Position numbers and translations under genes: made by a program. The notes under the pieces are model-generated. The model made no database searches and had not been told where the DNA came from. It saw nothing but the letters and a program-made list of their open reading frames with translations. From an uncultured Bacteroidales bacterium (GTDB lineage Bacteria; Bacteroidota; Bacteroidia; Bacteroidales; FEN-979), in contig CAVYJI010000012.1 in NCBI GenBank assembly GCA_963768805.1, forward strand, positions 3,305 through 67,304: 64,000 nt of DNA, in the 5' to 3' direction. Positions 3,370 to 59,847 of the stretch are shown here, one piece after another. Within the stretch, counting starts at the first letter, position 1. Each line of letters starts with the position of its first letter.

Positions 3370-3460
3370 AACAGAAGATCGCTCGAAGGGTGAACGAAGC
3401 TCAATCGAAGCTTAATCGAAGGTCAATCGAAGCTTAATCAAAGGAAGGACGGAAGGAGAC
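3370..3460. repeat. Degenerate tandem array, 8 units of exactly 11 bp with a CGAAG-type core
   Basis: Core pentamers (AGAAG/CGAAG/CAAAG/GGAAG) start at 3373, 3384, 3395, 3406, 3417, 3428, 3439 and 3450, with spacing of exactly 11 bp. The central units are AATCGAAGCTT. The array lies between the convergent queG and ubiX ends. The same unit recurs at 59478-59600. Confidence 0.85.
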
Positions 3461-3559
3461 TATCTAACTAATTGAAATTTAGGCTGAATCCTGATTAATA
3501 AACAATTGATAATTGAAGCTCCGGATGCTGGCTATTGGAGTGTAAATCAAGCGAGGGAA

Positions 3560-19971: not shown

Positions 19972-20033
19972 CAGCTATTCATTTTTTCTGCGGATTGCAT
20001 TCCCCTTCATTTTTATTTAGCAGATCACGGGTA

Positions 20034-20168
20034 TGAATCCCAGGGCAAGCCCTGGACCATAATTCGCCCCAAGGGTCGGGGTATTCTACCCTCCGACTTC
20101 ATCGGGATTGTTCAACTATGAGTTTTAATCCACTATGTTCTTAAAATTGTAGTTTCACGAATAAAAAA
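20034..20168 (+). repeat. Dispersed structured element, copy A (candidate ncRNA or miniature repeat)
   Basis: The 5' arm ATCACGGGTATGAAYCCCAGGGCAAGCCYTGGACC and the ~66-nt 3' arm TCGGGATTGTTCAACTAT...CACTATGTTCTTAAAATTG.AGTTTCACGAATAAAAA are near-identical to 48001-48166. The centre is a different hairpin in each copy. Confidence 0.8.
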
Positions 20169-35232: not shown

Positions 35233-35288
35233 TGGGGTTCGTTTTGTTCCTGATTGAAGACGAAAGTACTATTTTGAAGGGAATATAC

Positions 35289-35322
35289 AAAAAAAAAGTG
35301 CCCGCCTCGGCGGGCACTTTTT
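35289..35322. terminator. Strong orphan intrinsic terminator (bidirectional; best on the minus strand)
   Basis: GTGCCCG-CCTCGG-CGGGCAC hairpin (35298-35317), flanked by A9 on the left (T9 on the minus strand) and T5 on the right. It sits upstream of the pgi start, with no annotated gene feeding into it. Confidence 0.75.
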
Positions 35323-35422
35323 ACTCAATCAATAAACAAAACTTTTAATCAGATAATTCGTACAAACTCACATTAGCCAAAAAAGAACTACTGGTATTTC
35401 ATTTGCTCTCTCGTTTTTTCCA
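35289..35422 (-). ncRNA. Candidate ~130-nt small RNA (hypothetical)
   Basis: A minus-strand TATCTTTG (TAnnTTTG) box at 35436-35429 lies ~130 nt upstream of the terminator at 35289-35322. The interval has no ORF longer than 4 codons. This rests on a promoter-plus-terminator argument only. Confidence 0.25.
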
Positions 35423-35790: not shown

Positions 35791-35845
35791 TATAGTTTAA
35801 TTATAGTTTAATTATAGGATGAGTATAGGAAGGGTATAGGACGAG
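35791..35845. repeat. Tandem array, 5 units of exactly 11 bp with a TATAG core
   Basis: TATAG starts at 35791, 35802, 35813, 35824 and 35835. The units are tatagtttaat x2, tataggatgag, tataggaaggg, tataggacgag. Confidence 0.8.
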
Positions 35846-35962
35846 TTGATAAATGGCTGGAAATGTAATAGTTAACGATTGATAGGACTGGAATATAACA
35901 GATTATCAGAGAGTTACAAGATAAAAAAAGGCACACTATGACAAAATGTCATCAAAATAATG

Positions 35963-47999: not shown

Positions 48000-48000
48000 A

Positions 48001-48166
48001 ATCACGGGTATGAACCCCAGGGCAAGCCTTGGACCCATATTCCGCCGCAGAGCAGCGGGGTACCTGCCGGCAGGCAGGCAGGTTATACGCTCTGCCTTCG
48101 TCGGGATTGTTCAACTATCAATTTTAATTCACTATGTTCTTAAAATTGAAGTTTCACGAATAAAAA
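48001..48166 (+). repeat. Dispersed structured element, copy B
   Basis: Same conserved arms as 20034-20168. The central hairpin is longer: GCAGAGC...GCTCTGC enclosing ACCTGCC-GGCAGGCA-GGCAGGT, which includes a (GGCA)3 microrepeat. Confidence 0.8.
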
Positions 48167-58690: not shown

Positions 58691-59260
58691 TCATTTCACT
58701 CTTTCCAACTTATCTTTATCAAATCTGGGTTTCTTACCAAAGACAGAGATGCCGAGCTGGTAAGTTTTGATGTTACCCTCGTCAGTATCATGCCAGCGGG
58801 CTTTAAGTTCTGCTTTTGGAATATAGCCGACGTTGAACAAGGCGGGGTCTGATAACAAGATTAAATCACAGGTGTATCCTATTACCACCACAAAGTGGCC
58901 GTAATCCCATTCATCTTTATAATTTTTAGCAAAATTTTCTTTGCTTCCCCATGCCTGGAGCATAATGATCACCGGGATGTTACGGTTGATCTGCGCTATG
59001 AGATTGCTGATGGTCATTTTGTGTCTTACGATGGCTTTTAAGCCCTGCCTGTGAAAGAACTTAACGATGTTCTTTACGTACGTTCCATGTTTTGGATCAG
59101 TCTTAAGATCGTGTGCAAGGTCTAACTCACGGAAATCTTCTCCATAATAGACCATGACCTTCTGAACGCAGTCAGCTCCGCATGTAAATGAGGTTCCCTG
59201 CCTGTCCTGTACAGGGAAATCAAGAATTTTAACATCTTTATTATCTGATAATTCTTTCAT
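58691..59260 (-). CDS. Stand-alone C39-like papain-fold cysteine peptidase
   Basis: 189 aa with a candidate catalytic Cys in TSFTCGADC, a His in YGHFVVVIGY and a downstream Asp (LSDPA). It has no signal peptide and no ABC-transporter fusion. Confidence 0.75.
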   Translation of the reverse strand: MKELSDNKDVKILDFPVQDRQGTSFTCGADCVQKVMVYYGEDFRELDLAHDLKTDPKHGTYVKNIVKFFHRQGLKAIVRHKMTISNLIAQINRNIPVIIMLQAWGSKENFAKNYKDEWDYGHFVVVIGYTCDLILLSDPALFNVGYIPKAELKARWHDTDEGNIKTYQLGISVFGKKPRFDKDKLERVK

Positions 59261-59477
59261 GGTAATAAATCACATATTGGGAATCAGGCATTTGTCTTTC
59301 AGAAATAACCTGCAAATTAATATCTTTTTAATTATGATGGTTGGCCACATAATTGAAAAAGGGGAAAGTTTAATTGTTGTTAATTGAATAGTATTGAAGG
59401 CCAGGTTTTAAGGGGGGACAAGATGCGAAGGAATTATGCTTCGGGTACAGGGTTCTGGGCGAACTTTTAGTATGTTT

Positions 59478-59600
59478 TGATCGAAGCTTAATCGAAGCTT
59501 AATCGAAGCTTAATCGAAGCTTAATCGAAGGTTAATCGAAGGATCCCCGAAGGAACCCCGAAGGAACCCCGAAGGATCCTCGAAGAATTCCCGAGGTATA
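59478..59600. repeat. Degenerate tandem array, 11 units of exactly 11 bp with a CGAAG core
   Basis: CGAAG (last unit CGAGG) starts at 59482, 59493, 59504, 59515, 59526, 59537, 59548, 59559, 59570, 59581 and 59592. The units drift from AATCGAAGCTT (x4) to CCCCGAAGGAA (x3). All cores are on the plus strand, as at 3370-3460. Confidence 0.9.
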
Positions 59601-59774
59601 CTACAGGAAGTTTATTGTGAGTCAATAATTACGATATAGCAAACATTACTTAATGATACAGATAACTATCAGAAGGTTCTATTAAACAGGATGGTGTTAA
59701 CAAAACTTCCATCACTATAAAACAAAAAAAGCCCTGAACTATTTATAATTCAGAACTTTAATACTTTGCCTTTG

Positions 59775-59847
<73 letters not shown>

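Follow-up and report, generated by a model that had tools for sequence, protein, structure and literature searches.

The DNA analysed here (the window, 64,000 nucleotides) is part of contig CAVYJI010000012.1 in assembly GCA_963768805.1, the genome of an uncultured Bacteroidales bacterium of 3.86 Mb, 43% G+C and 20 contigs, in which it corresponds to C12:3305-67304 in our contig numbering. Our subject is a short tandem array, hereafter array 1, that lies between the genes for a C39-like peptidase and tRNA-Phe and in which the pentamer CGAAG returns at 11-bp steps. Ten of its cores are exact, with starts at 59482, 59493, 59504, 59515, 59526, 59537, 59548, 59559, 59570 and 59581, and an eleventh carries a single mismatch (CGAGG, start 59592), giving a span of 59482-59596. 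The original prediction of eleven phased CGAAG units with drifting flanks was thus borne out as ten exact units and one variant. The flanks of the units change along the array, and the features of the locus are as follows:

59457-59478, plus strand: leader-like units gggcgaacttt and tagtatgtttt, in the same 11-nt register; they match the family leader (gag)tata[g/t]ttt (gagtgaatttt) in a register-parsed print of 45 loci
59479-59544, plus strand: six AT-type units, the first four gat/aat-CGAAG-ctt, the fifth with gtt and the sixth with gat; the type most often seen across the genome
59545-59588, plus strand: four G/C-type units, cccCGAAGgaa twice, then cccCGAAGgat and cctCGAAGaat; a variant, peculiar to this locus, of the G-rich 3' block that the family has
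59589-59599, plus strand: degenerate eleventh unit, tccCGAGGtat, by direct reading of the sequence
58691-59260, minus strand: gene for a C39-like peptidase of 189 amino acids (Pfam PF13529/PF03412 on the identical product)
59727-59760, minus strand: hairpin and T-run directly after tRNA-Phe, likely a terminator, read by eye from the sequence
59774-59847, minus strand: tRNA-Phe(GAA), by gene prediction

Array 1 is situated 218-340 bp upstream of the start codon of the C39-like gene, which is the start codon nearest to it. On its other side, it lies past the hairpin and T-run that follow tRNA-Phe, such that a likely terminator separates it from the tRNA transcript. Stop codons are present in all six frames, in agreement with the earlier statement that the array is non-coding. 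Tandem Repeats Finder (TRF) reports array 1 with a period of 11 as 5.6 and 5.3 copies, with 98% and 87% matches, and the window has 11 occurrences of a three-unit phased pattern, of which 100 dinucleotide-preserving shuffles yield none. The same arrays are present in independent assemblies from ENA and NCBI; array 1 is real and not an assembly artefact.

A second array with the same polarity had been announced for the far end of the window, and it is indeed found there, with five exact cores. A further array in the window follows the same register with another core:

3370-3479, plus strand: second array, consisting of one degenerate unit, five exact CGAAG units (3381-3435), aatcaaaggaa, a ggacggaagga tail and the linker gactatctaac taattgaaatt, from the sequence and the register print
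35791-35846, plus strand: related array in 11-nt register with a TATAG core, its flanks drifting from aat..ttt to gag..gga as in the CGAAG arrays, from TRF

The exact cores of the second array occupy 3384-3428, and in-phase degenerate units extend the pattern within 3370-3457. It begins a few bases past the queG stop codon, in the convergent gap between queG and ubiX, and is identical in an independent assembly.

Counting such arrays genome-wide had been suggested as a check on the original prediction. Our scan returned 45 arrays of the CGAAG family with 3-11 units each, distributed over 16 of the 20 contigs, and the core and the 11-bp register are kept throughout; a four-unit phased pattern has 120 matches in this genome. 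None of the 45 arrays lies inside an open reading frame (ORF), gene positions being taken from a crude ORF call that covers 88% of the genome. The gaps that host them are long, with a median of 457 bp vs 89 bp genome-wide, and divide into 22 tandem, 11 convergent and 10 divergent gaps (n=43), where gap length would lead one to expect shares of 60, 14 and 26%. The orientation of the arrays with respect to their two flanking genes is even (12 opposite/opposite, 12 same/opposite, 10 same/same and 10 opposite/same), and no recurrent gene family or transposase was found in their flanks. Three candidate associations were considered and discarded. A link to the direction of replication is weak, with 27 of the 45 arrays on the G-rich strand as judged by GC skew. 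Only 3 of the 45 are found within 300 bp of a tRNA gene, though other repeat families abut tRNAs. Finally, CGAAG does not behave as a restriction-modification target or an avoided motif, since its observed/expected ratio is 1.00 outside the arrays.

All 45 loci, when printed in the 11-nt register, display one common polar build, in which a leader is followed by AATCGAAG[C/G]T[C/T] units, then by G-rich CGAAGG units and then by a GGACGGAAGGA tail. Leader units read gagtatagttt, gagtgaatttt or, in a short form, gagtatatttt, and T-rich pre-units (aatcgaatctc) sometimes come next. The AT-type units have the form aatCGAAG[c/g]t[c/t], and the G-type units are ggtCGAAGgga, tgtCGAAGgca and cctCGAAGgca. 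The tail ggacggaagga leads either into the leader of a next module or into the linker gactatctaac taattgaaatt, and four GG runs are present in the G-rich tail GGAAGGACGGAAGG. Four types make up 133 of the 197 units (ctc 52, ctt 37, gtc 35, gtt 9). Neighbouring units differ mostly at position 9 (C/G, in 51 of 153 pairs) and position 11 (C/T, in 50 of 153 pairs), while each of the core positions 4-7 differs in 1-6 of these pairs. Because the register is continuous across the module junctions, leader and tail look like diverged units, in the fashion of a higher-order repeat. The cccCGAAGgaa-type unit of array 1 is seen at none of the 44 other loci.

The family has a narrow distribution. We compared 40 genomes of relatives, all of them metagenome-assembled genomes of Bacteroidales or Lentimicrobiaceae and 12 of them congeners, and the phased CGAAG pattern is absent from 39, among them 11 of the 12 congeners. 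The sole exception (G008) has one weak match, a CGAAG stretch of three or more units. A similar pattern is absent from 399 of 400 sampled Bacteroidota, the remaining one carrying an unrelated array; metagenome contigs yielded two matches, both unrelated, and viral contigs none. At the orthologous positions, the tRNA-Phe/coaX synteny is kept in six congeners, which have no CGAAG array there and other short repeats instead, and the queG-ubiX gap measures 194 bp in this genome vs 2-45 bp in six congeners. A search for synteny with more distant relatives by way of a PPDK-like gene did not find a shared context. The CGAAG family is thus restricted to this species and absent from the orthologous gaps of its congeners.

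Unit-number polymorphism between strains was a further check that had been proposed, and it could be carried out on independent assemblies of the same species (ENA, NCBI and Logan), which were found by exact-protein look-ups. Whole-unit differences were seen at two loci. At C6:176381, where the flanks are identical, 10 units are present both in this genome (gtc x5) and in one other assembly (ctt x4, gtc x4), 8 in a further one (gtc x3) and 7 in another two (gtc x2). The array at C13:91031 has either 7 units, with ctc x5, or 9, with ctc x7, and shows in addition a single C-to-G change at unit position 9. Four loci with a mixed unit order are invariant across all assemblies, and precise presence/absence alleles were not seen at any of the seven loci compared. 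Point differences inside arrays between near-identical strains are solely C-to-G changes at unit position 9, the most variable one within arrays; such changes could reflect conversion between units or between arrays.

For array 1 itself, comparison with one assembly gave 99.8% identity over 2.6 kb, and all five differences lie within the array. They comprise one position-9 substitution and four deleted bases (a net difference of 4 nt), all of which may be assembly errors. Three other assemblies lose homology to the window precisely where tRNA-Phe ends on its 3' side (59773/59774 junction), and past this point they carry a segment with an HTH_17 (excisionase-like) gene in place of both array 1 and the C39 gene. 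The DNA of that segment is absent from this genome. Given this break in homology, array 1 lies in strain-variable DNA, and the segment looks like a tRNA-linked variable island. All Logan short-read contigs that we examined ended inside an array.

We take array 1 to be one copy of a young, species-specific family of intergenic 11-bp satellites, i.e., minisatellites or variable number tandem repeats (VNTR), and we put the probability of this at roughly 60%. Slipped-strand mispairing in replication or repair would add or remove whole 11-bp units within runs of identical units, and such whole-unit slippage would at the same time maintain the 11-bp register automatically and homogenise the units by concerted evolution. 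Blocks of unit variants (ctt, ctc, gtc, then the G-rich forms) would have been amplified locally, with leader and tail as diverged units of the same register, and the arrays would be lineage-specific additions to intergenic DNA. Since strains differ by whole units inside homogeneous runs, slippage alone explains the preserved phase as well as the uniform core, and because it keeps the units alike, a constant core between flanks that drift does not call for selection on binding sites. The idea that the pattern points to selection on the phase hence finds no support, the strain differences being whole 11-bp units in runs of identical units. We infer that slippage is the process behind the unit polymorphism and that the arrays have no dedicated function. 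As for the spread of the family to approximately 45 loci, our guess is ectopic template switching or gene conversion between arrays. Their setting is best explained if arrays are tolerated outside genes only, in an orientation that is unrelated to the neighbours, and if effects on these neighbours (spacing, read-through, local DNA or RNA structure) are incidental.

The CGAAG family belongs to a class of dispersed intergenic tandem repeats that has been described in several bacterial lineages. Short tandemly repeated repetitive sequences (STRR) and long simple-sequence repeats (LSSR), with units of 5-11 nt, are dispersed and intergenic and have been left unexplained as to function, as far as the account in PMC4679880 goes (Mazel et al. 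1990; Mrazek, Guo and Shah 2007). The cyanobacterial STRR and the prokaryotic LSSR covered by it resemble the CGAAG arrays in their short head-to-tail units, the many copies per genome, the strongly intergenic location, the sporadic and lineage-specific spread and the changes in length by whole units (PMC4679880). Unlike the STRR covered there, the CGAAG unit measures 11 nt rather than the usual 7 and is unrelated in sequence, such that it fits the wider LSSR definition only. Furthermore, the composite polar build of the CGAAG arrays, in which leader, both classes of unit and tail keep to one register, is not among the STRR properties that this account gives. Direct repeats of the heptamer TAACTGA are known from Beggiatoaceae, Cyanobacteria and a few Bacteroidetes including Paludibacter (MacGregor 2015, PMC4679880). 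They, too, are dispersed, intergenic and present in Bacteroidetes, are missing at the same neighbourhoods of close relatives and show indels in unit increments between strains (PMC4679880). In the orange Guaymas 'Maribeggiatoa', TAACTGA repeats are forward-oriented and placed immediately upstream of start codons, which suggests control of translation (PMC4679880), whereas the CGAAG arrays display no preference for an orientation or a position.

Two other families deserve comparison. Xanthomonas and Nostoc carry quadruplex-forming GGGNATC repeats (Rehm et al. 2015, PMC4692102), which are likewise short intergenic tandem repeats that are found genome-wide, vary in copy number and are under-represented between divergent genes (PMC4692102). 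The four GG runs of the CGAAG tail are a further likeness to them. The CGAAG arrays do not share their preference for four units (3-11 are seen) and lack G3 tracts. Closer to home is BrickBuilt of Porphyromonas gingivalis, a minisatellite that has been classed among the miniature inverted-repeat transposable elements (MITEs) and has bricks of 23 nt, ends with small inverted repeats and a promoter activity that has been measured (Klein et al. 2015, PMC4596501). It shares with the CGAAG arrays a Bacteroidales host, tandem units without spacers that are framed by a leader and a tail, an always intergenic location, a copy number in the tens and species specificity (PMC4596501). The CGAAG arrays differ from BrickBuilt in their 11-nt unit, in inverted ends that stay at chance level and in a leader without a canonical -7 box in sense orientation.

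Two structural properties that had been envisaged for array 1 were also evaluated. Intrinsic curvature had been offered as one possible reading of the helical spacing, but a wedge model predicts straight DNA for array 1, at 2.9 degrees per turn vs 6.1 for random genomic DNA; an A-tract control gave 28, the family median is 9.1, and ctc/gtc units reach 13-15. The self-complementary AAGCTT, from which hairpins or cruciforms of consecutive units had been expected, is a feature of the ctt units only. There is no palindrome in the ctc and gtc units, which are commoner, and over the 45 arrays the folding of the G-rich strand is no better than that of shuffles (median z -0.46), so that such structures are no trait of the family. 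RNA folding of array 1 gave z-scores of -1.6 for the plus strand and -2.7 for the minus strand, aided by AAGCTT and GGATCC palindromes that are peculiar to this array.

Several observations weigh against a satellite that arose and spread by slippage and copying alone. The same 5'-to-3' order of leader, AT-type units, G-type units and tail is found at many unlinked loci, with the register unbroken at the junctions. Plain local slippage does not predict such a recurrent order, which requires that a composite ancestor was spread or that a functional constraint exists. Near-perfect units have been retained despite a divergence of ~10% in duplicated flanks. The C-rich strand of the family, by way of the UCGAUUGA quasi-palindrome with its G.U pairs, beats its shuffles in folding (median z -1.84, with 19 of 45 arrays below -2), though these z-scores are weak evidence, because any partly palindromic tandem repeat tends to outscore its own shuffles. 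A spreading mechanism left no mark in the places where we looked for one: terminal inverted repeats are at chance (matches of at least 9 nt at 2 of 45 loci vs 2% of shuffles), as are target duplications or flanking direct repeats (2 of 45 loci vs 3.6%), and solo units are not enriched, with a 10-mer found 5 times outside arrays. Finally, 11-mer families are expanded in this species only, which could point to a species-specific factor.

With respect to these points, one may ask whether the arrays are mobile. A BrickBuilt-type element, whose leader-units-tail cassette would be copied by a transposase in trans and may bring promoter activity to its neighbours, accords with the leader, units and tail, the always intergenic location, the multiple copies, the restriction to one species and the Bacteroidales host (PMC4596501). 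Subfamilies of the arrays share flanks, a 144-bp MITE-like repeat with at least 45 copies implies that mobilising activities exist in the genome, and array 1 is located in a strain-variable segment adjoining a tRNA gene. We nevertheless consider mobility of this kind unlikely, given the chance-level ends and target sites, the seven loci without a precise presence/absence allele and the finding that no transposase family recurs beside the arrays. As for the promoter component, 0 of 45 leaders contain TAnnTTTG, the canonical -7 box of Bacteroidetes, in sense orientation and 3 contain it in antisense orientation, against a background of 10%, which speaks against a promoter of the arrays' own in the leader. 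Highly improbable, in our estimate, is a contingency locus, in which gain and loss of units would switch the adjacent C39-like peptidase gene by phase variation. It is true that unit number varies between strains at sister loci, that two assemblies differ over 2.6 kb solely inside array 1 and that this array is upstream of the C39-like gene. However, array 1, which starts 218 bp upstream of the start codon, is found neither inside an ORF nor between promoter elements, and of the gaps that host its sister arrays, 11 of 43 are convergent and have no promoter. Moreover, a step of 11 bp preserves the helical face and would make a poor spacing switch.

Cooperative binding of a protein array had been the other expectation from the helical spacing, which invites comparison with protein-binding sites. 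In parC of plasmid R1, ten 11-bp iterons are bound cooperatively by ParR, regulators of the OmpR/PhoB type bind direct-repeat boxes, and periods of 7, 8 and 11 bp also occur in known ribbon-helix-helix protein arrays. The likeness of the CGAAG arrays to the parC and OmpR/PhoB sites consists in direct repeats at one helical turn, some ten units and the use of one DNA face. By analogy, a species-specific protein might bind one CGAAG per turn on one face and polymerise, forming nucleoid-organising or regulatory sites at ~45 loci. The 11-bp register and the near-invariance of unit positions 2-8 and 10 across 197 units would suit such a platform, as would units that stay intact next to diverged duplicated flanks, and a random orientation is compatible with a role that is played at the DNA level and does not depend on transcription. 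Nonetheless, this is quite unlikely. Whole-unit slippage accounts for phase and core without binding, unit number spans 3-11 and is not constant between strains, and the absence of the arrays from congeners means that no conserved process depends on them. Outside the arrays, CGAAG is neither enriched nor avoided; the arrays are oriented at random, convergent gaps make up 11 of the 43 that host them, and no candidate protein came to light. The net 4-nt, out-of-phase difference within array 1 in another assembly would, if real, also speak against binding. Families with 7- and 8-bp units, which are incapable of a shared helical phasing, coexist in the genome in equal abundance. Furthermore, R1 parC and the OmpR/PhoB sites are single, conserved and located beside their cognate genes or promoters, in contrast to 45 chromosomal copies with random orientation, variable unit number and no partner genes. 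One may go further and picture the arrays as orientation-independent chromosomal 'iteron' sites, where a species-specific protein with a ParR/omega-like ribbon-helix-helix mode of binding would coat one face, one unit per turn, at ~45 or more loci in order to organise the nucleoid or to exert silencing genome-wide, array length being tuned by slippage and the 7- and 8-bp families perhaps serving other proteins likewise; this extended proposal, again by analogy, we hold to be less likely still. Very unlikely, finally, is a role in RNA, where transcripts of the C-rich strand would form long imperfect hairpins from the quasi-palindrome, thereby stabilising 3' ends, terminating transcription or binding an RNA-binding protein. 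The folding of the C-rich but not the G-rich strand above its shuffles would be in keeping with this, unit position 9, the most variable one, sits in predicted internal loops, and other short arrays in the genus are clearly transcribed as tRNA spacers and terminator arms. Yet the arrays are evenly oriented with respect to the genes that read into them (22 G-rich vs 25 C-rich), Rfam gave tRNAs alone at gathering thresholds and no match at the arrays up to E 0.5, the leaders have no -7 box in sense orientation, and the z-scores carry the weakness mentioned above. A GGA-rich sponge RNA of the CsrB/RsmZ type was rejected because CsrA (PF02599) is absent from 13 of 13 genomes of the genus, while control genomes were positive.

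If the satellite reading is correct, a conserved core at one helical turn can arise by satellite dynamics alone, which cautions against reading phased repeats as operator arrays. An 11-bp, register-locked, polar satellite with a higher-order build, surrounded by 7- and 8-bp arrays in the hundreds, is a further clear case of a prokaryotic class that has so far been left unexplained, and the CGAAG family offers a tractable prokaryotic instance of concerted evolution. In practical terms, the arrays are ready VNTR markers by which strains of this uncultured Bacteroidales species can be followed in metagenomes, and they act as break points of short-read contigs. Should a binding protein or a dedicated spreading mechanism turn out to exist, the interest of the family would be sharply higher.

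The CGAAG arrays are part of a genome that is rich in short repeats. TRF returned 748 non-redundant arrays with period peaks at 7 (157 arrays), 8 (119) and 11 (106), nearly all of them intergenic (for period 11, 7 of 106 lie inside ORFs), and the arrays of these three periods, some 380 intergenic ones in all, form a dozen or more dispersed families. Arrays of 7- and 8-mers are plentiful in the congeners too, in part with identical units, and 11-mers are almost absent from them. In three congeners (G012, G001 and G004), the queG-ubiX gap consists almost wholly of palindromic ACGCGT-type heptamers, from which a two-way terminator hairpin could form. Two long intergenic stretches of this genome, C19:356068-358027 and C11:260326-262102, are largely composed of alternating 7- and 8-mer arrays (CAAGTGC, AATTAAA, GTCACAAG) with a higher-order period of ~150 bp.

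Short arrays are found within 400 bp of 18 of the 46 tRNA genes. Heptamer arrays of the CAAGTGC type abut tRNA genes at C8:91745-91806, C4:226603-226660, C8:5643-5700 and C15:26498-26662; one array of this type makes up the entire spacer between tRNA-Tyr and tRNA-Gly, another gives the 5' arm of a terminator hairpin after tRNA-Met, and those upstream of tRNAs are oriented inversely to those downstream. In two congeners (G011 and G007), a 7- or 8-mer array begins 6-9 nt 3' of tRNA-Phe and provides the repeat units of which the terminator is made, its last units pairing with an inverted copy that lies downstream, ahead of a T-run.

The MITE-like repeat mentioned above (it looks MITE-like to us) measures ~144 bp, is rich in GC hairpins and is present in at least 45 genome copies, mostly with 90-97% identity. 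Two copies are located in the window at ~20024-20165 (C12:23328-23469) and ~48000-48164 (C12:51304-51468). Several copies lie 120-140 bp from CGAAG arrays, and one is found directly after tRNA-Val. Elsewhere in the window, 35253-35339 gave a sub-threshold Rfam match to BSnc120 (37 bits vs a gathering threshold of 114, E 3e-5), which probably is due to chance. A second, broken gene for type III pantothenate kinase, with 74% identity to the coaX of the window and five in-frame stops, is located at C15:137-865.

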